Assembly: GCA_009692805.1 (NCBI GenBank)
Contig: SHYM01000001.1
Coordinates: 2,831 to 66,830 of the forward strand
DNA length: 64,000 nt
Origin: Dehalococcoidia bacterium
GTDB lineage: Bacteria; Chloroflexota; Dehalococcoidia; SHYM01
Direction: 5' to 3'
Shown in pieces: positions 926-48,905 of this stretch. Every line of letters begins with the position of its first letter. The first letter of the stretch is position 1. The notes beneath the pieces are model-generated. The model did no database searches, had not been told where the DNA came from, and saw only the letters and a list, made by a program, of their open reading frames with translations. The position numbers and the translations under genes were made by a program.

Positions 926-1066
926 CTTTGCACAAAAAAGTCTCGTTCCTTCGAGCTGGCTCTCCCCTGAAGATGCCATCGACCATCCCCCTTACAAAAG
1001 GGAGAGAAAGGGGGCCACCCCCTTACGCCCCCGGCAGATCCCGAGCATCGGGACTCTGCACTCCCT
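926..1066. repeat. MITE-like intergenic repeat, copy A (TTGCAC-AAAAG end module, CCATCGACCATCCCCC box, GGCAGATCCCGAGCATCGGGACTCTGCACTCC hairpin)
   Basis: The same modules recur at 2284, 35222, 39103, 43688 and 48662. It sits in a non-coding gap after the crotonase gene. Confidence 0.7.
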
Positions 1067-1127
1067 CCTTTGCCGGTAAGATGCCCCGTTTGTACAAAGG
1101 AACCGTGACTCAACGATAGGAGGGGTC

Positions 1128-1745
1128 ATGACTCAAGGGAGAGCGAAGACGCAACAGCAAGAGCATACCTGGGACGACCTCATCGCCGCCATCGGGCAGG
1201 ACTTCTCGGGTGGGGAGGTCCGGCAGACGGCCGACGCCATTGACCGGAGCATGATCAGGCGCTATTGCGAGCCCTTGGAGATAGACTGCCCTCTCTACCA
1301 CGACGACGAGGTGGCCCGCCAGCACGGGTACAAGGGCATCCTCTTGCCTTGGAGCGCCTACGGCGCGCTCAGCGGCCCTCCCGTCTGGAAGCCAGGGGAC
1401 GCTACCAAGTGGCCGGTGCCTGACAAGGATTACAGCGCCACCATCCGTCCGCCCTCGGAAAGGACTGAGAGCAAGGCGCCGCCTCTTCCCATGCCCCTCA
1501 CCGACTCCAGCATGGCCACCGACATCGAGATCGAGTATCTCCTTCCCGTCTATGTGGGGGACCGGCTTTCCTCTCGGGGGCGCAAGTTGGTGTCCGTCGC
1601 CGTGCGCCAGACCCGGGTGGGCTACGGCGCCTTCTATGTCTTGGAGAGCGAGATCGTCAACCAGCGAGGCGAGGTCGTGGCCAAGACCCGCAATGGCATC
1701 TACCAATACATCTCGGGCGCCAAGGGCCCCAACAAGGGAGGGTGA
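1128..1745 (+). CDS. hotdog-fold protein, MaoC-dehydratase N-terminal (FAS1-like) domain
   Basis: A ...MIRRYCEPLEIDCPLYHDDEVARQHGYKGILLPWSAYGAL motif is present. The next gene is a MaoC dehydratase 7 nt downstream, giving a HadAB-like pair. Confidence 0.6.
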   Translation: MTQGRAKTQQQEHTWDDLIAAIGQDFSGGEVRQTADAIDRSMIRRYCEPLEIDCPLYHDDEVARQHGYKGILLPWSAYGALSGPPVWKPGDATKWPVPDKDYSATIRPPSERTESKAPPLPMPLTDSSMATDIEIEYLLPVYVGDRLSSRGRKLVSVAVRQTRVGYGAFYVLESEIVNQRGEVVAKTRNGIYQYISGAKGPNKGG

Positions 1746-1751
1746 CAACCC

Positions 1752-2198
1752 ATGGCTGATTGGAGCAAGCAGCGTTACTGGGAGGACGTCAAAGAGGGGG
1801 ACGAGGTCCCGGGGGTGGTTTTCAACATCGCGTTGCAGCGCCTGGTCATGGCGGCAGGCGGCAACCGGGACTTCAACCAGATCCACCACAACGACCGCAT
1901 AGCCAAGGCTCAGGGAGCCCCCGACGCCTATGCCAACAACGGCTTCGTTCAGGGCATGTGGGAGCGCACAGTCCGCGAGTTCATCGGCCTGGACGGGAAC
2001 GTCAAGAGGGTGGGCCCCTTCCGCATGGTCAGCTTCAACACGGTGGGCGAGGGTGTGATCACCAAGGGCAGGGTAAAACGGAAGTGGCAGGAGGGCCGGC
2101 AGGGTCTCGTCGAGCTCGAAATCTGGTCCGAGCACTCCAAGGGCGTCAGCGTGGGACCCGGGCCCGTCGTCGTCACCCTGCCCTTCCGGCGCGGGTAG
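1752..2198 (+). CDS. MaoC family (R)-specific dehydratase (hotdog fold)
   Basis: NRDFNQIHHNDRIAKAQGAPDAYANNGFVQGMW motif. Translationally coupled to the upstream hotdog protein. Confidence 0.7.
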   Translation: MADWSKQRYWEDVKEGDEVPGVVFNIALQRLVMAAGGNRDFNQIHHNDRIAKAQGAPDAYANNGFVQGMWERTVREFIGLDGNVKRVGPFRMVSFNTVGEGVITKGRVKRKWQEGRQGLVELEIWSEHSKGVSVGPGPVVVTLPFRRG

Positions 2199-2283
2199 TA
2201 TCCGGGGCTCTCCGCGGCGCTACCTAGTTGCTTATGGCGCTCAGCCTACGGGGCATGCCACGGCACTCTTTCGCGTCCCGCAA

Positions 2284-2414
2284 ACTTCGCACAACAAGTC
2301 TCATTTTCTTCGAGCTGGCTCTCCCCAGGAAGAGAGTGTAAGGAGAAGGAGAGAATCCCGAGCGTCGGGACTTCGACCCCCGGCAGATCCCGAGCATCGG
2401 GACTCTGCACTCCC
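2284..2414. repeat. MITE-like intergenic repeat, copy B (hairpin module duplicated)
   Basis: TTCGCACAACAAGTCTC...GAGCTGGCTCTCCCC...ATCCCGAGCGTCGGGACT...GGCAGATCCCGAGCATCGGGACTCTGCACTCC. It abuts the 3' end of the ABM monooxygenase gene. Confidence 0.7.
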
Positions 2415-2432
2415 TCTATTGCCGGGGGATTC

Positions 2433-3119: not shown

Positions 3120-4328
3120 ATGCCGGGGCCGCTAGCTGACCTCACGATCCTCGACCTAACGGAATACATCGCCGGTCCCTACGCGACCAAGCTGCTGGCG
3201 GACTACGGCGCCAACGTCATCAAGCTGGAACGGCCGGGCGGCGACCCCTCGCGAGGACTGGGGCCGTTCAAGGGGAACAGCAAGCACGCCGAGCGCAGCG
3301 GCACCTTCTTCTATTTCAATACCAACAAGCGCTCCCTCGTGCTGGACCTGCGCGCGCCTGAGGGCCGGCAAGTCTTCCTGCGGCTGCTGGACGGGGCGGA
3401 TATCGTGGTCGAGAGCTTCCGGCCGGGCGTCCTGGACCGCCTGGGCGTGGGCTGGGACGCTGTCCATGCCCGCAAGCCGTCCGCCCCCCTGGTATCCATC
3501 ACCAACTTCGGGCAGACTGGCCCTTACCGGGAGTTCCGGGCCTCGGAGCTGGTGCTGTTCGGCTTCGCCGGGGAGATGTACTCCATGGGGGGTCAAGACC
3601 GCGCGCCGGTCAAGATGTACGGCACGGCTGCCCAGGTGGAATCGGGCTCCGCCGCGGCGAGCGCCATCCTGGGGGCGGCGATGGTCGGCAAGTGGCAAGG
3701 AGTGGGCCAGCGAGTGGACTTCTCCCTGGCGGAGAGTCACCTATTAGGAGTGGACCGCCGCCACGCCACCGTCATCGGCTATCAGTTCTCCGGTCGCAAG
3801 ACTCAGCGCCGGGCGGGCGCCGGCGTCGCCCTGGGCGGAGTCTACCCCTGCGCCGATGGCTACGTGGAACTGGCAGGCGGCGCCTGGTTCGACCGCGTCA
3901 TAGAGATGCTGGGAAACCCCGCGTGGCTGCGCGACCCCAAGTGGCTGGACCCGGTCGCGCAGACCGACCCCGCCCTGATCGAGGAGTTCGAGGGCCACTT
4001 TTACGAGTGGCTGCTGGCGCGCACCCGTCGAGAAGTCTTGAGGGAGGCGCTGCAGGCGCGGGCGATCTGCGCGCCCATGTTCACCGTGGACGAGCTCTTC
4101 GACGACCCTCACTTCATCGCCCGCGGGCTCTGGGCCCGGGCGGAGCATGCCGAGCTGGGCGCCTTCGCCATCCCTGGCAGGCCCTTCCTCATGAGCGATT
4201 CGCCCTGGGAACTGCGGCGTCCGGCGCCGCTCCTGGGCCAGCATACGGCCGAGGTGCTGCGCGAGGCCGGCTACAGCGAGGGTGAGGTCCAGGCCCTGGC
4301 CCAGCGGCATATAGTGGAGGTGCGGTGA
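3120..4328 (+). CDS. CoA transferase family III (CaiB/BaiF) protein
   Basis: N-terminus LADLTILDLTEYIAGPYATKLLADYGANVIKLERP. Confidence 0.85.
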   Translation: MPGPLADLTILDLTEYIAGPYATKLLADYGANVIKLERPGGDPSRGLGPFKGNSKHAERSGTFFYFNTNKRSLVLDLRAPEGRQVFLRLLDGADIVVESFRPGVLDRLGVGWDAVHARKPSAPLVSITNFGQTGPYREFRASELVLFGFAGEMYSMGGQDRAPVKMYGTAAQVESGSAAASAILGAAMVGKWQGVGQRVDFSLAESHLLGVDRRHATVIGYQFSGRKTQRRAGAGVALGGVYPCADGYVELAGGAWFDRVIEMLGNPAWLRDPKWLDPVAQTDPALIEEFEGHFYEWLLARTRREVLREALQARAICAPMFTVDELFDDPHFIARGLWARAEHAELGAFAIPGRPFLMSDSPWELRRPAPLLGQHTAEVLREAGYSEGEVQALAQRHIVEVR

Positions 4329-5656
4329 TGGCCCACCTGCCGCTGCACGGCATCAGGGTCGTCGACCTGACTGGCGTCTGGGCCGGCACCTTCGCCACCA
4401 TGCTCCTAGCCGACCTAGGAGCAGAGGTCATCAAGCAGGAGAACCCCTACCTCATGCAGCCCAACACCCGCGGCCGGCGCGCTCACCTGACCAAAGCGAT
4501 GCTCCAGGGTGGCACGGCCTGGGGCTCCGGTTACCCGAACAATGAGCCGGGGCCGCGCCCCTGGAACTACTGTCCGACCTTCGTGCAGCTCTACCGCAAC
4601 AAGCGCAGCTTCACCGTGGACATCCGCGGGCCTGAGGGCATGGACATCCTGCGGCGGCTGATTGCAAAGTCCGACGTGGTCATGGAGAATAGCGCCCCCG
4701 GCGTCATGGAGAAGCTGGGCATTACCTACGAATGGCTCCAAGGCATTAAGCCAGACATCATCTTTGCCCGCATGCCGGCCTACGGCTCCAGCGGGCCCTA
4801 CCGGGATGGGCGCGCCATGGGCGTGCACCTGGAGAGCATGATCGGGCATGCGCTCCTGCGCGGCTACCCGGACCTCGACCCCTCCAACAGCACCGCCACC
4901 TTCGTCGCCGACTACACGGCGGGCACCCAGGCGGCCCTGGCGGTCATGATGGCGCTCTGGCACCGCCGGCAGACCAACCGCGGGCAGTTGATCGAGCTGT
5001 CCCAGGCGGAGAGCGCCGTGCCGATGATGGCGCAGGCCCTGATGGACTGGTCGCTAAATCAGCATCTGCAATCCGCCATCGGCAACCGCTCCCTCGACGG
5101 CGCCGCCCCCTGCGGCGTCTATCCCTGCCGCTCGCCGGGCACACCAGAAGACAGCGGCGACCACTGGATCGCCATCACCGTCGGCAGCGACCGCCAGTGG
5201 GAGGCGCTGCGCAAGCTTATGGGCGACCCGGAGTGGGCGCGCTCGGGGGATCTGGTCACGGCGGAGGCCCGGGCCCAGCGCCAAGACCTGCTCGACGCCA
5301 GGCTGGCGGAGTGGACGGCTGACTGCGACGACTACGAGCTGATGCACCGGCTTCAGGCCGCCGGCATCGCCGCCGCCCCCGTCCTGGAGGCCTCCCGCGC
5401 GCTCGATGACCCCCAGGTCCTGGCGCGGGACCTCTATCAACCGCAGCGCATCTACGACGATGTGGGCGTCTACAAGTACATGACGCCCTTCTACCGCTTC
5501 TCCGAGACGCCCACGGGCATCCACAAGCCCCCGGTGGCTTTCGGGGAGGACAACGAATACGTCTACAAAGAGGTCATCGGGGTCAGCGACGGGGAGTACG
5601 CGCGCCTGCGGGCCGCCGGGCATATACGCATGGACTTCGACGAATCGGTGCCCTGA
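4325..5656 (+). CDS. CoA transferase family III (CaiB/BaiF) protein, paralog
   Basis: GIRVVDLTGVWAGTFATMLLADLGAEVIKQE. GTG/ATG start overlaps the upstream stop (TGATG). Confidence 0.85.
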   Translation: MMAHLPLHGIRVVDLTGVWAGTFATMLLADLGAEVIKQENPYLMQPNTRGRRAHLTKAMLQGGTAWGSGYPNNEPGPRPWNYCPTFVQLYRNKRSFTVDIRGPEGMDILRRLIAKSDVVMENSAPGVMEKLGITYEWLQGIKPDIIFARMPAYGSSGPYRDGRAMGVHLESMIGHALLRGYPDLDPSNSTATFVADYTAGTQAALAVMMALWHRRQTNRGQLIELSQAESAVPMMAQALMDWSLNQHLQSAIGNRSLDGAAPCGVYPCRSPGTPEDSGDHWIAITVGSDRQWEALRKLMGDPEWARSGDLVTAEARAQRQDLLDARLAEWTADCDDYELMHRLQAAGIAAAPVLEASRALDDPQVLARDLYQPQRIYDDVGVYKYMTPFYRFSETPTGIHKPPVAFGEDNEYVYKEVIGVSDGEYARLRAAGHIRMDFDESVP

Positions 5657-9540: not shown

Positions 9541-9570
9541 GCCAGATATGTCGGCGAAAGGGACAGCCTA

Positions 9571-12734: not shown

Positions 12735-12811
12735 TGGCGACCCCGATGGGATTCGAACCCACGATCTCCACCGTGACAGGGTGGCATGTTAGGCCGCTAC
12801 ACCACGGGGCC
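12735..12811 (-). tRNA. tRNA-Asp (GTC)
   Basis: The reverse complement folds as a cloverleaf: acceptor GGCCCCG/CGGGGTC, anticodon loop CTGTCAC, TTCGAAT T-loop, genomic CCA. Coordinates +/-1. Confidence 0.8.
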
Positions 12812-35197: not shown

Positions 35198-35221
35198 AGG
35201 GCCATTGTACGGCCCTCGCCA

Positions 35222-35470: not shown

Positions 35471-35648
35471 GCCACCCTAGCCCATTACCATCACGGGCGA
35501 TGGGTCTGCGCAGTCGTTGTTGACAAGGTACCCGACGCCGTTATTATTGGTGCGCGGCGCGCGTTGCCCCTATGTTTTTATTCCGAGCTGAGGCCAGCGT
35601 CCCACCGCGGCCCCCGGCAGGCCCTCGTCAGCGAAGGAGATTGCACCT

Positions 35649-37046
35649 ATGCCCAAGAAGCCACGGAGCTTAGGCGAGCTACGCAAAAGCGGCTACAAGC
35701 CCAACACCGTCAAGTACGAGCTCCGGCGCAACTTGATCCGCAAGATCAAGGCCCGGGAGGAGATCTTCCCGGGGATCGTCGGCTACGATGAAACCGTCAT
35801 CCCCCATATGCTGAACGCCATCTTGTCCGGGCAGGACATGATCCTCCTAGGCGAGCGGGGACAGGCCAAGAGCCGGTTGGCGCGCAGCCTGGTGAACCTC
35901 CTGGACGACGAGACGCCCATCATCAGCGGCTCCGAGCTCAACGACGATCCCTTCCGGCCCCTTAGCAAGTTCGCCCGCGAGCAAGTGGAGGCCCACGGCG
36001 ATGAGACGGAGATCGACTGGCTTCCCAAGGAGCAACGCTACTCGGAGAAGCTGGCCACTCCGGATATAACCATCGCCGACCTCATAGGCGAGGTGGACCC
36101 GATCCGGGTGGCGGAAGGGCGCTATCTCTCCGACGAGCTGACGATCCACTATGGACTGATACCCCGGACCAATCGAGGGATCTTCGCCATCAATGAGCTC
36201 CCCGACCTGGCGGAGCGCATCCAGGTCGGGCTCTTCAACCTCATGGAGGAGCGGGACATTCAGATCCGCGGGTACCGTATCCGGCTACCCCTGGACGTCT
36301 ACATCGTGGCCAGCGCCAACCCCGAGGACTACACCAACCGCGGGCGGATCATCACCCCGCTGAAGGACCGCTACGGGTCACAGGTCCGCACCCACTACCC
36401 CAAGAGCCTCGACCTGGAGATGGAGATCATGGAGCGGGAGCACAAAGTCCTGGGCGACGGCCCTCCCAAGGTGTGGGTGCCCCCCTTCATGAAGGAGGTC
36501 ATCGCCGAGCTCACGGCCCTGGCCCGCAAGAGCGCCGACATCAACCAGCGCTCGGGCGTCAGCGTGCGCATCTCCATCGCCAACTATGAGAATATCGTGA
36601 GCAACGCCGTGCGCCGGGCCGTCCTCGCTGGGGAGGAGGAGGCGGTGCCACGGATTAGCGACCTGCCCTACGTGCTGCCCTCCACCACCGGCAAGATCGA
36701 GCTGGAGAGCGTGGAGGAGGGCCGCGAGGAGCACCTCATCACCCAGCTGCTTCAGCGGGCCGTGCTCAACACCTTCAACCGCTACTTCGCCGGCCGGCCC
36801 TTCGAAGAGCTGGTGGCCCAGTTCGATGCCGGTGCCACTGCCGAGACCTCGGAGATAAAGCCCGCCACCGACTACGTGAAGCTCCTCAAGAAGCTGCCCG
36901 CCTTCGAGGCCGGCTTCAAGGAGCTGGGCATCCAGGAAACACCCGCCGCCAAGGCCTCCGGCATGGAGTTCATCCTGGAGGGGCTCCACCTGAACCGGAG
37001 GCTCAACAAGGAGAAGGTGGAGGGGGTCGTTCGCTACCGGGGGTAG
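35649..37046 (+). CDS. AAA+ ATPase, Mg-chelatase ChlI/BchI-like family
   Basis: Walker A (LLGERGQAKS), Walker B (IFAINELPDL) and an arginine-finger region, with a GAAGGAG RBS. Confidence 0.7.
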   Translation: MPKKPRSLGELRKSGYKPNTVKYELRRNLIRKIKAREEIFPGIVGYDETVIPHMLNAILSGQDMILLGERGQAKSRLARSLVNLLDDETPIISGSELNDDPFRPLSKFAREQVEAHGDETEIDWLPKEQRYSEKLATPDITIADLIGEVDPIRVAEGRYLSDELTIHYGLIPRTNRGIFAINELPDLAERIQVGLFNLMEERDIQIRGYRIRLPLDVYIVASANPEDYTNRGRIITPLKDRYGSQVRTHYPKSLDLEMEIMEREHKVLGDGPPKVWVPPFMKEVIAELTALARKSADINQRSGVSVRISIANYENIVSNAVRRAVLAGEEEAVPRISDLPYVLPSTTGKIELESVEEGREEHLITQLLQRAVLNTFNRYFAGRPFEELVAQFDAGATAETSEIKPATDYVKLLKKLPAFEAGFKELGIQETPAAKASGMEFILEGLHLNRRLNKEKVEGVVRYRG

Positions 37047-37050: not shown

Positions 37051-39087
37051 ATGGGCTACCTCTACTCCAAGTGGGACGGCGCCCAGAGCTCGGGCGCTCT
37101 CCACAGCGGCCAGCTCATGGACGAGCTGGCGCAGCACCTTCTGACCTCCGCAGACCTGTCCCAGGCCCTCCGCTCCCTGCTCCAGCGCGGGTTGCGCTCA
37201 CCCTCCGGCGACAGGGTCCCCGGCATCCAGGACCTGCTTGAAAAGCTCCGCCAGCGGCGCCAGCAAGCACTGGCGCAATACAATCTGGAAGCCGCCGTGG
37301 ATAGCCTGCGCCAGCAGTTGGACCGCGTCCTGTCCAGCGAGCGCGGCGGCATCGAGCGCAGGCTACAGGAGGCCCGCCAGCGCGCCGACGACGCGGGCCA
37401 GGCCCCTGGCCCCATCTCCTTTGAGGAGACCCAACATCTCCTGGATCTCCTAGAGCGCCTGTCGGCACAGCACCGCTCGGCCCTCGATGCCATCCCCCGC
37501 GACCTGGGCGGCGCTGTCAAGGGGCTCTCCCGCTACGATTTCATGGACGGGCAGGCCAAGGCCCAGTTCGATCAGCTGCTCCAGCTCCTCCAGCAGAAGA
37601 TGCTGGAGTCCCACCTTAAGGACCTGGCGCAGCGCTTCCGCGGCCTGAGCCCCCAGGAGAGCCAGCGACTGCGGGAGATGCTGGAGCAGCTGAACGGACT
37701 GCTGGAACAGGGGTTGCGCGGTCTGGAGCCCGACCCGCACCCCTTCCTGGACCGTTTCGGCGGCGCCTTTGGCGAGCATCCCCCCGCGAGCCTGGATGAG
37801 CTGGCCCAACAGCTTCGCCACCAGGTGTCCCAGCTCCAGTCCCTGCTCAATAGCCTGCCCCAGCAGCTAAGGGAATCGCTCCAGCAGATGCTGGACGCCT
37901 CCATCCCCGACCAGGACCTCCGCGCGGAGCTGGCGCGGCTGGCGGCCAACCTGGAGGGGCTCCTCCCCCTACGTGGCAACCCCAGCGAATACCTCTTCAC
38001 GGGCGAAGAGCCCGTGACTCTGGAGGAGGCGCTGCGACTCATGGAGCGCCTCCAGGACCTCGACAACCTGGAGCGCCAGCTGCACCGGGCCCGCCAGAGT
38101 GGGAACCTGCGAGAGGTCGACCAAAAAGGCTTGGGCCAGCTCCTGGGGGCCGAGGCGGGACAGGACCTGGCCCAGCTGGAGCGCCTAACTGGCCTGCTGG
38201 AGGAATCGGGCTACATCCAGAAGCTCCAGAACGGCTACGAGCTGACGCCCCGCGGCGTGCGCAAGATCGGACAGAGGGCTCTCCAGGACATATTCGCCTA
38301 CATCAAAAAGGACCGCTGGGGAAAACATCCCTCCCGTCAGCCCGGTCAGGCGGGCGACCAGGAAGACGATACCAAGGGCTACGAGTTCGGCGACCCCTTC
38401 CGGCTCCACCTGGAGCGCACCTTCATGAACTCCCTGCTGAGGGAGGTCGGCTTACCGGTGCGGCTGCAGCCCTCCGACTTCGAGGTCTACCGCTCCCAGT
38501 ACCTCTCCCAGTGCGCCACCGTGCTCATGCTGGACCTGAGCCTCTCCATGGCCATGAAAGGCAGCTTCCTCGCCGCCAAGAAGGTGGCCTTGGCCTTGAA
38601 CGACCTGATCCGGACACAGTTCCCCCGCGACCGCCTCTACATCGTCGGCTTCTCCACCTACGCCCGCGAGCTGAAGGCCGCCCGCCTGCCCTATCTCTCC
38701 TGGGACGAGTTCGACCCCTACACCAACATGCAGCACGGCCTCGCCCTCTCCCAGAAGCTCCTCTCCAAGGACCGCTCCAGCAACAAGCAGATCATTATGA
38801 TCAGCGATGGCGAGCCCACTGCCCACATGGAGGCCGGGCGGCTCTACCTGGGCTACCCACCCAGCCCCCGCACCCTGGAGCAGACCCTGCGCGAGGTGAA
38901 GCGCTGCACCCAGCAGGGCATCACCATCAACACCTTCATGCTCGACCGCAGCGCCTACCTGGTGGAATTCGTCAGCCAGCTCACCAAGGTCAACCGCGGA
39001 CGGGTCTTCTACACCAGCCCTGAAAAGCTGGGGCAATACCTGCTGGTCGATTACCTGTCTGACCGCCGTCACCGGGTGGTCCGCTAA
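37051..39087 (+). CDS. VWA-domain protein with long N-terminal coiled-coil region (ChlD/CoxE-like partner of the AAA+ ATPase)
   Basis: C-terminal VWA MIDAS (VLMLDLSLSMAM...IIMISDGEPT). Starts 4 nt after the ATPase gene stop. Confidence 0.7.
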   Translation: MGYLYSKWDGAQSSGALHSGQLMDELAQHLLTSADLSQALRSLLQRGLRSPSGDRVPGIQDLLEKLRQRRQQALAQYNLEAAVDSLRQQLDRVLSSERGGIERRLQEARQRADDAGQAPGPISFEETQHLLDLLERLSAQHRSALDAIPRDLGGAVKGLSRYDFMDGQAKAQFDQLLQLLQQKMLESHLKDLAQRFRGLSPQESQRLREMLEQLNGLLEQGLRGLEPDPHPFLDRFGGAFGEHPPASLDELAQQLRHQVSQLQSLLNSLPQQLRESLQQMLDASIPDQDLRAELARLAANLEGLLPLRGNPSEYLFTGEEPVTLEEALRLMERLQDLDNLERQLHRARQSGNLREVDQKGLGQLLGAEAGQDLAQLERLTGLLEESGYIQKLQNGYELTPRGVRKIGQRALQDIFAYIKKDRWGKHPSRQPGQAGDQEDDTKGYEFGDPFRLHLERTFMNSLLREVGLPVRLQPSDFEVYRSQYLSQCATVLMLDLSLSMAMKGSFLAAKKVALALNDLIRTQFPRDRLYIVGFSTYARELKAARLPYLSWDEFDPYTNMQHGLALSQKLLSKDRSSNKQIIMISDGEPTAHMEAGRLYLGYPPSPRTLEQTLREVKRCTQQGITINTFMLDRSAYLVEFVSQLTKVNRGRVFYTSPEKLGQYLLVDYLSDRRHRVVR

Positions 39088-39102
39088 TTTCAGGCGCACC
39101 GG

Positions 39103-39286
39103 CTTTTGCACGAAAAGTCAGTCAGTGTAGCGGGAGTGCAGAGGGCAGGCAGCCCTTTGTCGGAGTCATGGGTGTCCCCTCAACATCTTTCCCTCCCCCT
39201 TCGAGCCTTGCTCGAAAAGTCCGGCAAATCTGGCGAATCTCCTAGAGGAGAGTGCAGAGTCCCGATGCTCGGGATCTGCCGGGGGG
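39103..39286. repeat. MITE-like intergenic repeat, copy D
   Basis: TTTTGCACGAAAAGTCAG...GGGAGTGCAGAGGGCAGGC...CTTGCTCGAAAAGTCCGG...GAGAGTGCAGAGTCCCGATGCTCGGGATCTGCCGGGGGG. Confidence 0.65.
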
Positions 39287-39456
39287 ATGATCGTAACCCA
39301 GATCAAAGACTGGGTTGGTGTAGAACCACTTTTGGAGCAAGCCCGTAGACGGGGGATAGGATCGTCCTCCCAGCCACTCCTTTGCCAAGCAGGCGCCGGT
39401 GGGATAAACTAGCGCGAGTCGAAACGGCAGGATCCAAAAGTCGAGAGGAGAATGTC

Positions 39457-39948
39457 ATGCCCAACCCAGTAGTCCGCTTCGAGATCGGGGCCAAGGACGC
39501 CAAGAAGGCGCAGAAGTTCTACGCCGACCTCTTCGGCTGGCACGTGGACGCCAACAACCCCATGAACTACGGCGTGGTGGACACCCACGCCAAGGGAGGC
39601 ATCAACGGCGGTATCACCGCCATCCAGAAAGGCATGCCCGCGCTGATCATCTATGTGGAGGTGGACGACCTGTCCGCCTATCTCAAGAAGGCGGAGAAGT
39701 TGGGCGGCAAGACCCTCATGCCGCCGACGGTGATACCGAACATGGTGACCTTCGCCCTGTTCGCCGATCCCCAGGGCACCACCATCGGCATGATCAAGAG
39801 CGATCACCCGTCCGCTGAGGCGAAGCCGAAAGCTGCGGCGCCGGCGCGCAAGGCTGCTGCAAGCAGCCGGACTACGAAGGCTGCTGCAAGCAGCCGGACT
39901 ACGAAGGCTGCTGCAAGCAGCCGGACTACGAAGGCAGCCAAGCGCTAG
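39457..39948 (+). CDS. VOC (glyoxalase/bleomycin-resistance fold) family protein with C-terminal KAAASSRTT x3 repeat tail
   Basis: VVRFEIGAKDAKKAQKFYADLFGWHVD..., with a GAGGAG RBS 7 nt before the ATG at 39457. Confidence 0.7.
   Translation: MPNPVVRFEIGAKDAKKAQKFYADLFGWHVDANNPMNYGVVDTHAKGGINGGITAIQKGMPALIIYVEVDDLSAYLKKAEKLGGKTLMPPTVIPNMVTFALFADPQGTTIGMIKSDHPSAEAKPKAAAPARKAAASSRTTKAAASSRTTKAAASSRTTKAAKR
39850..39930 (+). repeat. perfect 3 x 27-bp tandem repeat (AAGGCTGCTGCAAGCAGCCGGACTACG) inside VOC gene 3' end
   Basis: Three identical contiguous units encode KAAASSRTT each. Confidence 0.85.
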
Positions 39949-40029: not shown

Positions 40030-43000
40030 ATGGGAAAGCTGCAAGGGCTGTTACCAGCGCTAAGTGGGGGTCCCATCCTGGGGGCTCTCAAGGCGGCGCT
40101 GGACGCCGCGGGCGACCACCCCTATCGCCGCGTCGCCGTCCTGGAGGCCGCCAAGCCCGCCTTGGTGGCGGCCCTGGCCCAGGCCACCGGGGCCCCGGTG
40201 CTGGTGGTTACCACCACCGCCCAGCGGGCGGCGCAGCTACAGGAGGAGATCGAGGCCTGGGCGCCCTCCAGCCATACTGTAACTCTGTATCCGGACCCGG
40301 CGGGCATCCCCTACGAGCGGGTCCCCTCGGCGCCGGGCGACCGCTGGCAGCGCCTGTCCGCCCTGCGCCTTCTGGCCCATTCCGAGCCTGGCCCAGCCGC
40401 CCCTATCGTGTTAGCGCCGACCCTGGCGCTCATGCAACACGTCTTGACGCCCGTAGAGTTCAAGTCCGCCGCCCACGCCATCGCGGTGGGGCAACGGGTC
40501 CGGCTGGACGCCCTGCTCCAGCGCTGGGTCGCCCTGGGGTACCGCAACGAGGCCCTGGTGGAAGAGCCTGGCGCCCTGAGCCGCCGGGGCGGCGTGGTGG
40601 ACATCTGGCCGCCGCAGGCGCCGCTGCCCGTCCGTCTGGAGCTCAACGGCGACCGGGTGGACAGCCTGCGCCAGTTCGACCCCGCCAGCCAGCGCTCGGG
40701 CGCCTCCCTGGACACGGTCGCGATCATACCCGCCCGCGAGGCCCTCTTCCCCACTGATCTTCTAGACCACCCCGAAGCGCTCCTGAGCGCCCTCGGCCTC
40801 GACTCCATACCAGCGGAGGCCCGGGCGCGCCTGGCCGAGGAGGCGCAGGCGGCCTTTTCGCTCCAGCGGCCGGACCTCACGGAGATCTACGGGGCGGTGC
40901 TGAACAAGGGCGGGCTGCTGGACTTCCTGCCCCCCCACAGCCTGCTGGTAGTCGACGAATTGGCCGAGGTGCTGGCCCTGGCCGAGGAGCTGGAAGGCCA
41001 GGCCCGAGAGCTGCGGCTGGACCAGCAGGACCGAGGGATTCTACCGCCGGGGTTCCCTGTCCCGTACTGGGGCTATAAAGCCGTCGAGGAGCGGCTGGCG
41101 GGCCATCCCCGCCGGGTGGCCCTGGAGCGCTGGGGCCAAGCGGAGGCGCTCCAGGGCGCGGAGGCCAGGGACGCCCTTGCTGGCGCCCCGGCTGCGCCCC
41201 CGGCCCACCGGGACTACTTCATGCTGCCCTGCCGGGGCGTCCCGGCCTTCGGCGGCCGCCAGGCCCCCCTGGCCGAATGGGCGCGCTCCGAGACCCGGGC
41301 CGGCGGGCGGGCGGTGATCGTGTCGCAGCAGGCCCCCCGGTTGGCGGAGCTGCTGCTCGAAGAGGACCTCTTCGCCACGCCCGTGGAAGAGCTGTCCAGC
41401 CTACCCTCGCCAGGCACCCTCACCCTGGTCCACGGTGGCCTGGCCCAGGGGTTCGGCCTCCTCGCCGCCGCTGGAGCGCCGGCGCTCTCCCTGGTCGGCG
41501 ACGCGGAGGTCTTCGGGTTCGTCAAGCAACGCCGCCGTCGTCCCCCGCGGACGGCGACGCCGCGCGTCGACCTGGGGGAGCTGGCCCCCGGCGCCTTCAT
41601 CGTCCACGCCGACCACGGCATCGCCCGCTTCGCCGGCGTCCAGACCATCGCGCGGGACGGCGCGGAGCAAGAGTACCTAGTGCTGGAGTACGCCGGGGGT
41701 GACCGCCTCTTCGTGCCGGCCGACCAGATCTCCAGGGTGACGGGCTACATAGGGCACGCTGGCCAGGAGCCAAGGCTCCATCGCCTGGGAGGCCAGGAGT
41801 GGGGCCGGGCCCGGGAGCGCGCCCAGCGGGCCGCCTCTATCCTGGCGGAGGAGCTGCTGGAGCTGTATGCCTCCCGGCAGCTACTGCAAGGCCAGGTCTG
41901 CCCCCCAGACACCGTCTGGCAGCAGGAGCTGGAGGCCTCCTTCCCTTACACAGAGACCCCCGACCAGCTCCAGGCTATAGAGGCGGTGAAGGCCGACATG
42001 GAGTCCCCGCGCCCCATGGACCGTTTGGTCTGCGGCGATGTAGGGTACGGCAAGACGGAGGTAGCGGTGCGGGCCGCCTTCAAGGCCCTCATGAGCGGCC
42101 GCCAGGTAGCGGTGCTGGTGCCCACCACGGTGCTGGCCCAGCAACACTTCCAGACCTTCAGTCAGCGGTTCGCCCCCTTCCCCATCCACGTGGACGTGCT
42201 AAGCCGCTTCCGCTCGGACAGGGAGCAGGGGCAGGTGGTGCAGGGCCTGAAGGAGGGGAGCGTCGATCTGGTCATCGGCACCCACCGGCTCCTCCAGAAA
42301 GACGTGGCCTTCAAGGACCTGGGCCTGGTCATCATCGATGAGGAGCAGCGCTTTGGCGTCGGCCACAAAGAGCGGCTCAAGCAGATGCGCCGGGAGGTGG
42401 ACGTCCTCACCCTCTCCGCCACGCCCATCCCGCGCACCCTCCACATGGCCCTGGCGGGCGTCCGTGACCTGAGCACCATGGAGACCCCCCCGGAGCACCG
42501 GCTGCCCATCCTGACCTACGTCGCCGAATACGACGAGAAGCTGGTGCGGGAAGCGGTGTTGCGGGAGCTGGAGCGCGGGGGCCAGGTCTTCTACCTCCAC
42601 AACCGGGTGCAGACCATCGCCCGGACGGCGCGGCGCCTGCAGGAGCTGGTGCCCGAGGCGCGCATCGCCATCGGCCACGGCCAGATGCACGAGGAGGCGT
42701 TGGAGCGGGTGATGTTGGAGTTCGCCCAGGGCCAGCACGACGTCCTGGTCTGCACCACCATCATCGAGAGCGGCCTGGACCTGCCCAACGTGAACACCCT
42801 CCTGGTGGAGCGGGCCGAGCAGTTCGGCCTCGCCCAGCTCTACCAGCTGCGCGGCAGGGTAGGCCGCGGCCCCCAGCGCGCCTACGCCTACTTCTGCTTC
42901 GAGCGCGACCGCAACATGACCGAGACAGCCCAGAAGAGGCTGGACGCCATCTTCCAGGCCACGGAGCTGGGGGCCGGCCTCAAGATCGCCCTCAAGGACC

Positions 43001-43623
43001 TGGAGATCCGGGGCGCTGGCAATTTGCTAGGGCCAGAACAGAGTGGCTACATCAGCGCCGTGGGTTTCGACCTTTACACCCGGCTCCTGGCCGACGCCGT
43101 GGCGCGTCTACAGGACCAGCAGGCTATGGCCCAGGGGCGTCAGCCCCAGGCACGCCCGCGCCCACCCGAGGTGACCGTCGATCTGCCTCTGGCCGCCCAT
43201 CTGCCCCAGGACTACGTGCCCGATGTGAACGTGCGCATGGAGCTCTACCGCCGGCTGGGCGCGATGACAGGCGCGGAAGAGATTACGGGCCTGGAGCAGG
43301 AGCTGCGGGACCGCTTCGGGGCCCTCCCCGAGCCCGCGCGCGCCTTGCTTGACCTGATGCGGCTCAAGCTGCGCGCCGCCCAGGCCGGCGTCGAGAGCAT
43401 CCAGTCTGGAGACCCTTACCTGACCCTCAAGCTGAAGACGACGACGGTGCCGCCGACCCTGGCGCTGGAACGCGCCTTCGGGCCAGCGGTGCAGGTGTTG
43501 CCAGGCAGGGTGCTGGTCGCCGCCCACGACGGCTGGTACCGCCGCCTGCGGCAGGTGCTGGATGCCTTAGCGGGACCAGTGGGAGCGCGCTCTCGCGCCG
43601 ACAAGGTCCCTCAGCGCGGCTAG
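40030..43623 (+). CDS. mfd: transcription-repair coupling factor
   Basis: 1197 aa. UvrB-homology N-terminus, RecG-like SF2 helicase core (DVGYGKTEVA, DEEQRFG, QLRGRVGRG) and a TRG motif. Confidence 0.9.
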   Translation: MGKLQGLLPALSGGPILGALKAALDAAGDHPYRRVAVLEAAKPALVAALAQATGAPVLVVTTTAQRAAQLQEEIEAWAPSSHTVTLYPDPAGIPYERVPSAPGDRWQRLSALRLLAHSEPGPAAPIVLAPTLALMQHVLTPVEFKSAAHAIAVGQRVRLDALLQRWVALGYRNEALVEEPGALSRRGGVVDIWPPQAPLPVRLELNGDRVDSLRQFDPASQRSGASLDTVAIIPAREALFPTDLLDHPEALLSALGLDSIPAEARARLAEEAQAAFSLQRPDLTEIYGAVLNKGGLLDFLPPHSLLVVDELAEVLALAEELEGQARELRLDQQDRGILPPGFPVPYWGYKAVEERLAGHPRRVALERWGQAEALQGAEARDALAGAPAAPPAHRDYFMLPCRGVPAFGGRQAPLAEWARSETRAGGRAVIVSQQAPRLAELLLEEDLFATPVEELSSLPSPGTLTLVHGGLAQGFGLLAAAGAPALSLVGDAEVFGFVKQRRRRPPRTATPRVDLGELAPGAFIVHADHGIARFAGVQTIARDGAEQEYLVLEYAGGDRLFVPADQISRVTGYIGHAGQEPRLHRLGGQEWGRARERAQRAASILAEELLELYASRQLLQGQVCPPDTVWQQELEASFPYTETPDQLQAIEAVKADMESPRPMDRLVCGDVGYGKTEVAVRAAFKALMSGRQVAVLVPTTVLAQQHFQTFSQRFAPFPIHVDVLSRFRSDREQGQVVQGLKEGSVDLVIGTHRLLQKDVAFKDLGLVIIDEEQRFGVGHKERLKQMRREVDVLTLSATPIPRTLHMALAGVRDLSTMETPPEHRLPILTYVAEYDEKLVREAVLRELERGGQVFYLHNRVQTIARTARRLQELVPEARIAIGHGQMHEEALERVMLEFAQGQHDVLVCTTIIESGLDLPNVNTLLVERAEQFGLAQLYQLRGRVGRGPQRAYAYFCFERDRNMTETAQKRLDAIFQATELGAGLKIALKDLEIRGAGNLLGPEQSGYISAVGFDLYTRLLADAVARLQDQQAMAQGRQPQARPRPPEVTVDLPLAAHLPQDYVPDVNVRMELYRRLGAMTGAEEITGLEQELRDRFGALPEPARALLDLMRLKLRAAQAGVESIQSGDPYLTLKLKTTTVPPTLALERAFGPAVQVLPGRVLVAAHDGWYRRLRQVLDALAGPVGARSRADKVPQRG

Positions 43624-43687
43624 CACGTTTGGGGGGAGGCCTGCGAGATGGCAGCCTCATCAGGCGGGGGAACTGGGGGTGTCCCCG

Positions 43688-43850
43688 GCTTTGCACTAAA
43701 ACTCTCGTTTTCTTCGATCTGGCTCTCCTGTGAGGATGTCCACGACCATCCCCCTGGCCCCCTCCCTAGCCAGGAAGGGGGTAGTTTGAAAGGGAGAGAA
43801 GGGGGACACCCCCTTCGACCCCCGGCAGAGGGATTATCCCTCTGCACTCC
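43688..43850. repeat. MITE-like intergenic repeat, copy E (subtype 2 hairpin GGCAGAGGGATTATCCCTCTGCACTCC)
   Basis: GCTTTGCACTAAAACTCTCG...CGACCATCCCCC...CTAGCCAGGAAGGGGGTAG...GGGAGAGAAGGGGGACACCCCCTTCGACCCCCGGCAG.... It fills the gap between convergent mfd and prfB. Confidence 0.7.
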
Positions 43851-43852
43851 CC

Positions 43853-44957
43853 CTACCCCGTCGGGCCCACGGTACTCTTCAAGTAGGCCGTCATGAGGGC
43901 GTCCAGGTCGCCGTCCAGCACCGCCTGCGGGTCGCCGGTCTCATAGCCGGTGCGCAGGTCCTTCACCATCCGGTAAGGATGGAGCACGTAGCTGCGGATC
44001 TGGTTGCCCCAGCCGGATCCCACGTGGGCGCCCTTCAGGCGCAGCCGCTCCGTCTCTCGCCTCTGGATCTCCTGCTCGACGAGGCGGGCGCGCAGGATGC
44101 GCAGCGCCGTCTCCTTGTTCTGCTGGAGGGAGCGCTCGTTCTGGCAAGCGACCACCAGGCCCGAAGGGAGGTGGCGCAGCCGCACCGCGGTGGAGTTTTT
44201 CTGCACGTTCTGGCCCCCGGCGCCACTGGCCCGGAAGGTCTCTATCTCCACGTCGTCGGGCGAGATGACGACCTCCACCTCGGGCCCCGCCTCGGGCCAC
44301 ACCTCCACCAGGGCAAAGGAGGTGTGGCGGGCGTGGGCCGAATCGTAGGGGGACAAACGGACGAGGCGGTGGACCCCCCGCTCGGATTTAAGGTAGCCGT
44401 AGGCGTAGGGGCCCGCGATGGAGGCTACGGCGCTCTTGATGCCGGCCTCCTCGCCCGGGGAGCTCTCGATGACCTCCGCCTGGAATTGGCGGCGCTCCGC
44501 CCAGCGCAGGAACATCCGCAGGAGCATCTGGGCCCAGTCCTGGGCCTCCGTGCCGCCCGCGCCGGCGTGGACGGCCAGGATGGCGCCCCGGTTATCGTAC
44601 TCGCCTCCCAGGGTCAGGCGAAACTCCTGCTCGTCCAGCCGGCGCTCCAGCCGCTCCAGGCTGGTGCCTAGCTCCGCCTCCAGGGAGGAATCGCCCTCGG
44701 CGGCCGTCATCGCCGCCAGCTCGGACAGCTCGGCGGCCTGGCCTTCAAGGGAGCGCCAGAGGTTGACCTCTTCCTTCAGCGCCGCCAGGCGCTTCATGGC
44801 GGCCTGCGCCCGCTCCTGGTCACTCCAGAACTCGGGGTGTCCCGCCTCCGCCTCTAGACGGGTGGCCTCCACATCCTTGGCAGCCAGGTCAAAGACGCTC
44901 CTGGAAATGGGCGATGCGTTGCCGCAGCTCGGTCAGGCGGCCACCCAGATTTTCCAC
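43853..44957 (-). CDS. prfB: peptide chain release factor 2 (requires programmed +1 frameshift)
   Basis: Main ORF 43853-44872 carries the GGQ and SPF motifs. Upstream in the 0 frame, GTG at 44957 opens 22 codons ([22 protein letters not shown]) ending at CTT TGA C (44894-44888), the canonical RF2 shifty stop. Confidence 0.85.
44888..44894 (-). other. RF2 +1 programmed frameshift site CTT TGA C
   Basis: Read on the minus strand as GAG CGT CTT TGA CCT GGC. The downstream frame continues as [11 protein letters not shown]... Confidence 0.8.
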
Positions 44958-47197: not shown

Positions 47198-47244
47198 CAC
47201 CGCCGCCTGAGCGTGCCGCCCCGCGCGCACCCATTAGAAAACTC

Positions 47245-47300
47245 TTGACAGGTGCCGCTCATACGTTCTATACTATCAACTGTATAGAACGTATGAGCGG
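47245..47300 (+). promoter_or_regulatory. sigma70-like promoter (TTGACA-18 nt-TATACT) overlapped by a perfect 19-bp-arm AT-rich palindrome (CCGCTCATACGTTCTATAC-N8-GTATAGAACGTATGAGCGG)
   Basis: Hexamers at 47245-50 and 47269-74. Palindrome 47255-47300. A GGAGG RBS and the ATG of a small ORF follow. Confidence 0.5.
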
Positions 47301-47323
47301 GTATGCACGACGGAGGTATGGCG

Positions 47324-47626
47324 ATGGAGGACCTAGAGTTCGGACTGCTGTTGTTCCGGGTTGACCTGCTGCAAGCGCTGCGCAGCCGCGACCTGGACCG
47401 CCTGCGCGCCTGCCTGGTGCGCCAACACCCCTATGTGCAGTGCGCCCCGGGCCAGTTCCGGCGGCTCCTGAACGACGACCTCTACTTGCAGGCCGCCATA
47501 TACGAGCGCATCGTTGCCGAGCCGCTGCTAGAGGCGCTCCACCCAGAAGCGCAGGCGTGGCTTGAAGTCCACGGCTTTGAGCCCGCACCGGCGTCGCGCT
47601 CCGAGGCCGTAGGCGCTGCTGCCTAA
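47324..47626 (+). CDS. hypothetical small protein (100 aa) downstream of palindromic promoter
   Basis: GGAGGT RBS at 47312-17. ATG at 47324 has a 7-nt spacing; the earlier in-frame ATGs have none. Confidence 0.4.
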   Translation: MEDLEFGLLLFRVDLLQALRSRDLDRLRACLVRQHPYVQCAPGQFRRLLNDDLYLQAAIYERIVAEPLLEALHPEAQAWLEVHGFEPAPASRSEAVGAAA

Positions 47627-47914
47627 ACGGGGCTCATCCTTCGACAGGCTCAGGATGAGCGGGGGCGGGGCACCGCGGGATGAATCCCGCGGCATGGAAG
47701 CAGCGGCGGTAGGCTCAGGATGAGCGGGTATTGAGCGGACGCCTGAGTTCCACCGCTCATGGTGAGCTTGTCGAACCATGAGCCCCACATACAACTTCTT
47801 GGCACGCTCTTTAACGCGGCGAAGACACCGTGCCCGCCGTGATTCCGGACAAAGTCGGGACTCACGGTCACAACTCAGGTAGGCGTACTGCCAGACGAGC
47901 GGGGGCGTTTTCAG

Positions 47915-48667
47915 CTAGAAGCGGATCTCAATGCGGCGGAAGGCCTCCGCCAGAGGCACCCGCAGCGCCTTGCCGTTCTCGGCCAGACGCTCCTTCATCA
48001 TGCGCTCCATCTCCTCCCGCGGCCGGCGGCCGAAGCCCTGGCTTTTGTGCTGCAAAAGACTTTCGATCTTAAACTGGTAGGTCGTGCTCACATCCACGTA
48101 GAAGTTCGGGGTATCGGCACCCCAGAACAGCACCTCCCGCACCTTGTGGACTGACAGCCCTTGCGCCAGGTGCTCGGGGAAGCTGAGGCGGTCGCGGGCG
48201 TAGGGGAAACTGGCGTCGAGGGTCACCTGGCCAGACATGCGGTGGTCCCGGTGCTGCATATAACGGCGGTCGGGGTCGGTGCTGAGGGCGACCTCGGGGC
48301 GGTACTGACGGATCAGGCGCACCAACTCGCCCCGAAACTGGACGTCATCCTCCAGGCCGCCGTCGGGGTGGTCCAGAAAGACCACGTCCTGGATGCCCAG
48401 GACCTTAGCGGCGGCCAGCTGCTCCTCCCGGCGCAGGCCGGCCAGGCGCTCCGAGGTCATCTGGGGGTCCTCGGAACCCTTGTCGCCGTTGGTGCAAACG
48501 GCGAGGACCACCTGGCAGCCGTCGCGGGCCCAGCGGGCCAGGGTGGCTCCCGCCCCCACCTCGGCATCATCGGGGTGGGGGCTCACCGCCAGGGCCACGG
48601 CGGGCGTGGGCCGGCGCTCCTCCTGTCTCTGCTCGTTTTCTCGGTATTGCTGCGGTGAGCTGACCAT
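47915..48667 (-). CDS. PIG-L/LmbE-family N-acetylglucosaminyl deacetylase (MshB/BshB-like)
   Basis: VSPHPDDAEVGAGATLARWARDGCQVVLAVCTNGDKGSEDP. The ATG lies inside the CCATCGACCATC box of repeat copy F. The track ORF extension upstream is repeat-derived. Confidence 0.8.
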   Translation of the reverse strand: MVSSPQQYRENEQRQEERRPTPAVALAVSPHPDDAEVGAGATLARWARDGCQVVLAVCTNGDKGSEDPQMTSERLAGLRREEQLAAAKVLGIQDVVFLDHPDGGLEDDVQFRGELVRLIRQYRPEVALSTDPDRRYMQHRDHRMSGQVTLDASFPYARDRLSFPEHLAQGLSVHKVREVLFWGADTPNFYVDVSTTYQFKIESLLQHKSQGFGRRPREEMERMMKERLAENGKALRVPLAEAFRRIEIRF

Positions 48668-48905
48668 CGACCATCCCCCTGGCCCCCTTCCTAGCCAGGA
48701 AGGGGGTAGTCTGAAAGGGAGAGAAGGGGGACACCCCCTTCGACCCCCGGCAGAGGGACATTCCCTCTGCACTCCGTCCCGCCGCAGGCGGGGCGGCAGG
48801 ATGCCCTTTTAGTGCAAAGCTGGTACACCCCATTCGCCCCCCGGCCCTTCGACCCGCCTGCGGCGGGCTCAGGGCAGGCTCCGGGACCCCTCTGCACTCC
48901 GTCCC
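48662..48905. repeat. MITE-like intergenic repeat, copy F plus an adjacent partial second copy (subtype 2 hairpin; inverted TTTTAGTGCAAAGC end)
   Basis: GACCATCGACCATCCCCC...CTAGCCAGGAAGGGGGTAG...GGGAGAGAAGGGGGACACCCCCTTCGACCCCCGGCAGAGGGACATTCCCTCTGCACTCC...TTTTAGTGCAAAGCTGG, then CCCTTCGACCC...CTCTGCACTCCGTCCC. Confidence 0.7.

Follow-up and report, generated by a model that had tools for sequence, protein, structure and literature searches.

A mosaic, miniature-transposon-like repeat at six non-coding loci of a Dehalococcoidia genome

In a 64,000-nucleotide stretch of the genome of a Dehalococcoidia bacterium of the Chloroflexota (assembly GCA_009692805.1, contig SHYM01000001.1, positions 2,831 to 66,830 of the forward strand), six non-coding loci carry the same G/C-rich hairpins and short boxes, which leads to the question of what brought these modules to their sites and what keeps them there. 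The whole stretch is referred to here as the window, and coordinates are those of the window unless another locus is named. In an initial annotation the six loci had been assigned to a family of non-coding repeats, dispersed and modular, of the same kind as miniature inverted-repeat transposable elements (MITEs) or repetitive extragenic palindromes (REPs). This description is supported by the present analysis, and the six loci are confirmed as real copies of a mosaic, miniature-transposon-like repeat. A probable explanation is that they are the insertion sites of a mosaic, non-autonomous MITE-like element of 140-250 bp, some copies of which are nested, tandem or truncated.

Modules and copies in the window

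The four modules named in the initial annotation were all found at the places given for them and the copies share them far above chance, as judged from shuffled sequence. CCCCCGGCAGA occurs six times exactly against 0.17 expected, CTCTGCACTCC with at most one mismatch eight times against 2.35 expected, and GCTTTGCACNAAAAG with at most two mismatches six times against 0.19 expected, while the C-box, CCATCGACCATCCCCC, has five matches within the loci. When all copies were compared with the window by blastn-short, nothing beyond the six loci was matched by any of them. Module mapping together with a hidden Markov model (HMM) of the hairpin core gave at least eight cores, full or partial, at the six loci (A, B, C-, D1, D2, E, F1 and F2), which is about one core per 8 kb, and the units that contain them are non-coding, multi-copy and 140-250 bp in size. 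The full unit, of which the best example is copy A (925-1099), begins with a 16-nt end, GCTTTGCACNAAAAGT, followed by a left box, TTCGAGCTGGCTCTCCCC, the C-box, GATGCCATCGACCATCCCCC, hairpin 0 (CCCCCTTCCT-AGCC-AGGAAGGGGG, present in E and F), GGGAGAGAA and hairpin 1 (GGGGGACACCCCC), and goes on with CCCCCGGCAGA, hairpin 2, CTCTGCACTCC, a small GGCAGGATGCC module and the end sequence in inverted orientation.

The division of hairpin 2 into two subtypes was as originally described, with the form TCCCGAGCATCGGGA in A, B, C and D and the form GGGAYWWTCCC in E and F, and there are additional variants in D1 and F2. E and F share 95% identity across 108 nt, and only A, E and F have the third annotated module and hairpin 1 intact. 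The loci of the initial annotation stand but the limits of the copies had to be widened (A to 1099, C to 35221-35473 and D to 39343), and where one nested or tandem copy had been noted, both C and D are nested or tandem. Stable folding, which had also been claimed, was found in the full copies A, E and F1, which are more stable than their dinucleotide shuffles on both strands with z scores from -2.2 to -4.8 (A, -3.1 on the + strand and -3.0 on the - strand; E, -2.2 and -2.5; F1, -4.8), but the fragment copies fold no better than dinucleotide shuffles.

Inverted ends, target duplications and transposition

What had been called an end module occurs as an inverted pair at A (925/1099), C (35222/35472) and D2 (39205/39343), and B, D1, E and F1 each have one end of this kind. 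These inverted pairs bear out the idea that it is the end of the element, that is, a terminal inverted repeat. When target-site duplications were sought next to these pairs, the flanks of locus C, GCCCTCGCC at 35212-35220 and ACCCTAGCC at 35474-35482, matched at 7 of 9 positions and are a probable 9-bp target duplication, but the flanking 9 bp matched at 3 of 9 positions in A and 2 of 9 in D and no duplication could be recognised there. Metagenome contigs were then scanned with the end sequence of the window, which gave at least 120 loci, and the statements on these loci hold among the matches listed. Many of them are elements of 64-600 bp on unrelated soil metagenome contigs of 50-56% G+C that have the same inverted repeat and clean 9-bp direct duplications, such as GATCTCAAT in L137, GGTCCAATC in L148, CCATGAGGG in L123, CCCAGAGGG in L200 and CCTTGAGAC in L143. 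From these sequences, the ends of the window copies are best described as putative transposon ends of a widespread type that goes with a 9-bp duplication, and a GGCTTTG start combined with a 9-bp duplication is presumably in keeping with IS903-group ends, within the IS5 family.

The mechanism that we propose is that the inverted ends of about 16 bp, (G)GCTTTGCACNAAAAGT, would be the sites for a DDE transposase supplied in trans, which would cut and paste the element and duplicate 9 bp of the target. We infer that the window copies were moved by such a transposase. The internal cassette, made up of the G/C-rich purine/pyrimidine hairpins (C-box, hairpin 0, hairpin 1 (GGGGGACACCCCC) and CCCCCGGCAGA-hairpin 2-TCTGCACTCC), is Chloroflexota-wide with its self-complementarity kept by selection; it is perhaps folded in single-stranded DNA or in transcripts, and may act as a barrier, as an insulator or as a preferred landing site for later insertions. 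Copies would build up between genes, however these are arranged, since insertions within genes do not persist.

The core is also found inside transposon-like elements with a second type of end. In OZ252088-, OZ244812- and CBDFLP-type genomes it lies inside elements of 140-225 bp that have the inverted repeat GAGACCTTTGCGTAAC and 5-6 bp duplications, and these same ends also flank an IS5-family transposase gene in a Dehalococcoidia locus (L065, 3668-4875, duplication GTCTGC), which encodes a protein of 338 aa with matches to DDE_Tnp_1 (1e-30) and DUF772 (8e-27) and sits in the loop of a hairpin repeat. A tblastn search with this transposase gave no homologue in the window, and to that extent the statement of the initial annotation that there is no transposase in the window holds, the other open reading frames (ORFs) of the window being unscreened for transposases. 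Inverted pairs 1.0-1.3 kb apart in the metagenome loci were considered as autonomous partners of the window elements and rejected, as they encode no transposase. Another hairpin repeat, GGTTCCCGC-N-GCGGGAATGACGG, is found in L025 (7040-7135), L073 (680-705) and L027 (near 6600, - strand); it is the sole cargo of a MITE with GAGACC..GGTCTC ends in L025 and adjoins cores elsewhere.

Relatives, in which the differences in presence and absence are between different species, also contain an empty site: L016 carries an element at 4545-4806 and the orthologous site in L069 is a 32-nt spacer. In L023 and L086 the cores are at different ends of one orthologous gene, and in L105 another MITE is nested in a core that is intact in L027. 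These differences, together with three loci that keep a copy at an orthologous site (L037, L059 and L039), show that both turnover and long persistence occur.

The hairpin core and its conservation

To follow the core beyond the window, one genome per species was scanned with the pattern CCCCCGGCAGA-N8-20-TCTGCACTC, which gave at least 108 loci, and the relatives were studied as 8-kb loci around the matches. There are at least 116 exact matches in at least 54 other genomes, and the family is therefore not restricted to the locus where it was noticed. Among the matches listed, the hosts are nearly all metagenome-assembled genomes (MAGs) of Dehalococcoidia, SAR202 or other Chloroflexota. The layout of the core is GGGGGACACCCCC followed by CCCCCGGCAGA-hairpin-TCTGCACTCC; hairpin 1, which is not part of the search pattern, was present within 24 nt upstream with at most one mismatch in 97 of the 116 matches listed (42 genomes). 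The invariance of CCCCCGGCAGA and TCTGCACTC in the alignment is an ascertainment effect of the pattern. The HMM added 18 more copies in the same loci that are 1-3 substitutions off the exact pattern. The element is 76-81% identical to the window over 110-120 nt in the MAGs B83T1L10 and B10T3L14, and the core is 84-90% identical between the window copies and many other genomes where the detectable coding similarity is 66-67%. Outside the Chloroflexota there are a few matches, among those listed, in Siccirubricoccus (Alphaproteobacteria), Bilophila, a Clostridia MAG and a Coriobacteriia MAG, which have a real hairpin 2 and different neighbouring hairpins; the match in L013 looks like chance. The core is conserved across a phylum-level group and not specific to the source genome. 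Nothing specific on Chloroflexi REPs or MITEs was found in the searchable literature, and the repeats are most aptly regarded as a new family within an established class of elements, a mosaic similar to MITEs and to the bacterial interspersed mosaic elements (BIMEs).

Further upstream than hairpin 1, 60 of the matches listed have a C-rich box, CCCACCCACCCGCCC, with a G-quadruplex motif on the other strand. A conserved box, CTTCCCACCCACCCGCCC, was seen 20-45 nt upstream of hairpin 1 in L003, L023, L027, L073 and about 60 other copies of the core; its opposite strand, GGGCGGGTGGGTGGG, is a canonical G-quadruplex motif with 1-nt loops, and as RNA the box would be C-rich and G-poor.

The two stems of the core vary in a correlated manner. 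In hairpin 1, the two pairs just outside the G5/C5 stem are Watson-Crick pairs in 76 and 79 of 85 distinct copies, where independence would give 32 and 26, and all four pair types are present. Pairs 6 and 7 of hairpin 2 swap between G-C, C-G and A-T and yet stay paired in 81 of 95 and 53 of 56 cases, compared to 59 and 28 expected. Compensatory changes in both stems indicate that the hairpins are maintained as hairpins. On the C-rich strand hairpin 2 has recurrent A.C mismatches that would be G.U pairs on the G-rich strand, whereas in hairpin 1 the outer T.G favours the C-rich strand, opposite to these mismatches.

These changes, along with the copies kept at orthologous sites, are also consistent with the cassette being a host-maintained structural repeat of the REP/BIME type that acts in single-stranded DNA or mRNA, in a role such as 3'-end protection, transcription insulation or binding of nucleoid or topoisomerase proteins, with the transposon ends being secondary, hairpin-attracted insertions. 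We regard this as unlikely, although it has several points in its favour. The core is associated with two types of end and also with none at all, insertions of IS5-type elements are indeed seen in hairpin loops and in cores, and the organisation resembles that of enterobacterial BIMEs: both are dense, dispersed and extragenic, combine palindromic units with other short motifs in either orientation, and fold on both strands. Classified REPs, however, are imperfect palindromes of 20-40 nt with a conserved GTAG or CGTC head (PMC3733652) and the heads of the window family are CCCCCGGCA and GGAGTGCA. A DDE transposase, in place of a REP-associated tyrosine transposase, is suggested by the inverted ends and the target duplications, and the core lies within the inverted ends at a fixed spacing in A, C- and D2, that is, as one unit.

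Gene context bears on the same alternative. The initial annotation had confined the copies to gene 3' ends, mostly between convergent genes, and this did not hold: in the window two loci are convergent (B and E), one is divergent (C) and three are tandem (A, D and F). By crude gene calls among the matches listed, 110 cores in other genomes lie between co-directional (59), convergent (26) and divergent (25) genes, and among the co-directional ones the G-rich strand is the sense strand in 38 and the C-rich strand in 21. This distribution resembles that of intergenic DNA at large and any strand preference is at most weak. The mixed arrangement argues against an obligatory terminator or 3'-UTR role, a strict 3'-end or orientation rule is ruled out by it, and with a quarter of the copies between divergent gene starts, a 3'-end role is improbable as the general function of a REP-type repeat. 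No protein family recurs beside the cores among 747 ORFs in the loci around the matches, and a cis-regulatory element of a particular gene was rejected on this ground and because the flanking genes are unrelated.

Returning to the MITE-like element, its likeness to IS5-derived MITEs lies in its small, non-coding, multi-copy and intergenic nature, the imperfect inverted repeats of about 16 bp, the nested and truncated copies, the 9-bp duplications that the window end type gives in other organisms, and a sister end type, found around the core in other genomes, that is shared with an IS5-family transposase gene. Several observations weigh against this explanation. A plausible target duplication is present at locus C only among the window loci with an inverted end pair, and most window copies are without a recognisable one. 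No autonomous insertion sequence (IS) with the GCTTTGCAC end was found among the 120 metagenome loci listed or in the window, and the hairpin core is absent from the metagenome elements listed that have the window's type of end. The core is found, conversely, with the second end type and also without a recognisable inverted repeat, which together with the ends that lack a core means that end and core are separable modules, and the spread of the core may not be due to a GCTTTGCAC-end transposase. An interior that has been conserved in more than 50 species and recurs between two types of end is unusual for a MITE; DDE cut-and-paste transposition needs no internal hairpins, yet both stems show compensatory changes. 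Finally, the copy at the orthologous site in L037, L059 and L039 has been retained although the flanks are only about 80% identical, which points to long persistence or a host function.

What the structure of the core might be selected for is a further question, and one feature of it is the tail that follows TGCA after hairpin 2. This tail tracks the purine arm of hairpin 2 as its parallel complement and is thus a mirror of the 3' arm, for example in GAGAGGGA..TCCCTCTC-TGCA-CTCTCCCT, GAGGGGC..GCCCCTC-TGCA-CTCCCCG and GAGGGC..GCCCTC-TGCA-CTCCCG. When set against the hairpin-plus-mirror arrangement of the BoxC/TM_ECO repeats, in which three successive purine/pyrimidine blocks have at least 6 nt each and loops of 1-6 nt, copy E shows GAGGGA, TCCCTC and CTCCCC (5/6), and relatives reach up to 7/7 (e.g. 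L004 and L034). Within the stem length the tail matches the arm at 0.80 compared to 0.64 +/- 0.02 in permutations, and with one copy per genome (n = 55) at 0.83 compared to 0.66 (p < 0.003). Register 0 was the best of five when compared to shifts of +/-1 and +/-2, and the length of the G-run in the arm correlates with that of the C-run in the tail (Spearman 0.52, p = 4e-8). The mirror tail is statistically real. Within genomes, however, the association is not significant (0.772 compared to 0.755, p = 0.16), which indicates that founder effects contribute to it. An ordinary antiparallel alternative pairing of tail and stem was rejected as a misfit by eye, since GAGGGC arms occur with CTCCCG tails; the register series and the C<->G association bear on the mirror register only and not on the antiparallel alternative.

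A minority reading, which we consider improbable, is that what selection preserves in the core is an intrastrand triple helix (paperclip, H-DNA-like) of the BoxC/TM_ECO kind. It would concern the core stretch GGCAGAGGGG..CCCCTCTGCACTCCCC (on the C-strand, for example, GGCAGAGGGGCAGAGCCCCTCTGCACTCCCCG), where a purine/pyrimidine hairpin, a linker of 3-4 nt and a third block mirroring the pyrimidine arm could form Y*R-Y triples on the C-rich strand or R*R-Y triples on the G-rich strand. The permutation, register and run-length results are in line with it, and ACCATCCCCC-TGG-CCCCCTTCCT-AGCC-AGGAAGGGGG (8/10) and GGGGG-ACA-CCCCC-N3-CCCCC also lend themselves to this geometry. There is also a precedent in BoxC/TM_ECO, which represent abundant G/C-rich intrastrand triplex repeats in bacteria that form triplexes in vitro (Holder et al. 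2015; PMC4666352), and as read from sequence alone the core would have the same G/C-rich purine/pyrimidine hairpin with a third mirror block after a 3-4 nt linker and is likewise scattered between genes without any set position relative to them. The order of the blocks, however, is purine-pyrimidine-pyrimidine on the C-rich strand here and pyrimidine-purine-purine in BoxC/TM_ECO, the blocks here are shorter (5-8 nt) and different in sequence, and the TM_ECO pattern CCCTCNCCC-N3-6-GGGNGAGGG-N3-GGGNGAGGG is absent from the window elements by reading. Besides the lack of a significant tail/arm association within genomes, the mirror includes C<->G positions (22/34) that are not canonical triples, the linkers would need the outer pairs of both stems to be open though those of hairpin 1 covary as Watson-Crick pairs, the subtype-1 hairpin of the window (TCCCGA/TCGGGA) is without a mirror tail, and in vivo footprinting gave no stable triplex even for TM_ECO (PMC4666352). 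In L065, tandem units of about 60 nt, CCTCTCTCCC-GTCTGC-GGGGGAGAG-TTA-GAGAGGGGG, were seen at 3590-3665 and 4876-5010; they have the pyrimidine-purine-purine mirror architecture and the TTA linker in common with the BoxC/TM_ECO triplex motif of E. coli, and an IS5-family insertion sequence (3668-4875) occupies one of their loops.

It is very unlikely, in our view, that the core is instead a multi-copy small RNA or cis-regulatory RNA akin to Clostridiales-2 and made from the G-rich strand. The best Rfam match of copy E is to this motif, RF02937, at 43808-43859 on the - strand, which is the G-rich strand, with 34.0 bits and E = 6e-7, and it is non-random; the G-run, UGCAG, a G/C stem, CUGCCG and GUCGAAGGG are held in common in the same order (GGGgg-UGCAG-stem-CUGCCG...GUCGAAGGG). 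L073 and L057 give about 18 bits on the same strand, the sense bias of the G-rich strand among co-directional pairs (38 to 21) goes in the same direction, and so does the reading of the A.C mismatches as G.U pairs. The score of copy E is nevertheless far below the gathering score of 58.6 bits, the middle 33 nt of the model have no counterpart and the host phylum is another one, and this is a resemblance and not membership. At the gathering score, tRNAs were all that Rfam matched in the window and in 18 loci, one of which was the Clostridia locus. There is no conserved promoter or terminator beside the core; an intrinsic terminator was rejected in a consensus scan as no T-run follows hairpins 0-2, and the one hairpin that precedes a T-rich stretch is TGGCA-GGA-TGCCA, a small one in the right-end module of C-. 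The unconstrained context, orientation and neighbouring genes and the embedding of copies in transposon-like units also speak against an RNA.

A broader reading would combine some of these elements. On this reading the core of about 57 nt, comprising hairpin 1, CCCCCGGCAGA-hairpin 2-TCTGCACTCC and the mirror tail, would be a conserved cross-phylum structural module that is Chloroflexota-wide and has related forms in Clostridia (the Clostridiales-2 motif), Coriobacteriia, Alphaproteobacteria and Desulfovibrionia, that is selected for a fold of hairpin plus third strand (an intrastrand triplex) taken up as single-stranded DNA or RNA, and that has been repeatedly captured or targeted by different transposons. 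We hold this to be doubtful. If it is true, the core would be a functional element and not a passive MITE interior, for example a replication or transcription barrier, a hot spot of recombination or insertion, or a landing pad for a protein.

Anatomy of the copies, their neighbours and consequences

The genes around the copies, which were delimited by heuristic GC3-based calls and named by a Pfam scan, are unrelated and housekeeping or metabolic. Copy A (925-1099, + strand) is of full length, with the left inverted repeat at 925-940, the left box TTCGAGCTGGCTCTCCCC at 950-967, the C-box GATGCCATCGACCATCCCCC at 972-991, GGGAGAGAA at 998-1008, hairpin 1 at 1010-1022, CCCCCGGCAGA-hairpin 2 (TCCCGA/TCGGGA subtype)-CTCTGCACTCC at 1028-1064, the right module at 1075-1085 and the right inverted repeat, CTTTGTACAAAC (reverse), at 1088-1099. 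It lies between tandem genes on the + strand for an enoyl-CoA hydratase (25-879) and a dehydratase (1128-1745). Copy B (2284-2420, + strand) has a degenerate left inverted repeat (2284-2299), the left box (2309-2326), a second TCCCGAGCGTCGGGA hairpin in place of hairpin 1 (2356-2370) and hairpin 2 (2377-2413); it is without a right end and its tail adjoins the stop codon of the ABM gene (2433-2786, - strand), which is part of a convergent pair.

Locus C (35221-35473) is a composite of a partial copy on the + strand and a complete one on the - strand. The former (35222-35337) has the inverted repeat at 35222-35237 and the C-box at 35266-35285. The latter (35338-35472) has a degenerate right-end inverted repeat from about 35344, as judged by eye, the right module at 35356-35366, hairpin 2 at 35376-35412, the C-box at 35408-35427, the left box at 35431-35448 and the left-end inverted repeat (ACTTTCGTGCAAGGC on the + strand) at about 35458-35472. 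The locus separates the divergent 5' ends of an enolase-superfamily gene (34010 to about 35150, - strand) and an AAA ATPase gene (35649-37046, + strand) and is upstream of a promoter-like site at 35520-35547. Locus D (39102-39343, - strand) holds two reversed copies between tandem + strand genes for a VWA protein (37051-39087) and a glyoxalase-like protein (39382-39948). D1 (39102-39204) consists of the right-end inverted repeat, a variant hairpin 2, GGGCAGGCAGCCC, whose end is the CTCTGCACTCC at 39133-39143, and a remnant of hairpin 1, GGGTGTCCCC, and D2 (39205-39343) is complete, with inverted repeats at 39205-39220 and 39328-39343, hairpin 2 at 39249-39285 and a C-box variant, GATCATCCCCCC. 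At the 3' end of the glyoxalase-like ORF there is a 27-nt tandem repeat, AAGGCTGCTGCAAGCAGCCGGACTACG (39850-39938, about 3.3 copies, 97-100% identity), which, if read in frame, would give the protein a C-terminus with a 9-aa repeat.

Copy E (43675-43856, + strand) is preceded by a reversed remnant of hairpin 1 at 43675-43687, and has the left inverted repeat at 43688-43703, the left box at 43713-43730, the C-box at 43735-43754, hairpin 0 (CCCCCTCCCT-AGCC-AGGAAGGGGG) at 43758-43781, GGGAGAGAA at 43790-43800, hairpin 1 at 43801-43813, hairpin 2 of the GGGATTATCCC subtype at 43819-43850 and the tail up to about 43856. It is between the convergent genes for Mfd (40030-43623, + strand) and a release factor (43853-44872, - strand), is without a right end, and its tail adjoins the release-factor stop codon. 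Locus F (48660-48905, + strand) is made up of F1 (48660-48820), which is 5'-truncated and without a left end, and the fragment F2 (48821-48905). F1 has the C-box at 48660-48679, hairpin 0 at 48683-48706, hairpin 1 at 48726-48738, hairpin 2 at 48744-48775, the right module at 48795-48805 and the right inverted repeat at 48805-48820, and in F2, CCCCCCGGC and CCCCTCTGCACTCC (ending at 48900) surround a different module, CTTCGAC..GCTCAGGGCAGGCTC (48867-48881). This module (variant TTCGACAGGCTCACCACGAAC) is a further widespread repeat, seen in the window at 48846-48881, in L095 at about 170-200 (- strand) and in the right halves of the L025 and L073 MITEs; in F2 it takes the place of the hairpin 2 interior and in L095 it occupies the hairpin 0 loop. 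Locus F lies between two tandem PIG-L paralogues (47915-48650 and 48941-49639, both on the - strand) that are 74-78% identical at the DNA level, the right-hand one with a Pfam call as a PIG-L-family deacetylase. The tRNAs of the window, namely a Trp-Leu-Gly-Cys cluster at 63431-63889 at its right end, tRNA-Asp (12735-12811, - strand) and tRNA-Lys (29115-29190, + strand), do not adjoin any repeat copy.

The repeats may also matter for how such genomes are assembled. The exact protein encoded at 1752-2198 was found in two public contigs only, of 5.1-5.3 kb (ENA sample ERZ1305449), one of which begins about 110 nt upstream of the gene at 1128, at about 1018 and inside copy A, which suggests that short-read assemblies are broken by the repeats. 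As contigs of the source assembly end at them, the family is a probable cause of fragmentation in metagenome assemblies of this group. The family is dense in the window, widespread in uncultured Chloroflexota and absent from Rfam, and a model of the family would improve the annotation of Dehalococcoidia genomes and prevent spurious ORF calls across the repeats. It offers a manageable system in which the interior of a MITE is subject to structural selection, and its purine/pyrimidine hairpins with mirror tails parallel the BoxC/TM_ECO repeats of E. coli. If the core is a functional triplex or RNA module across phyla, the role of such G/C-rich repeats would become testable by comparative genomics.

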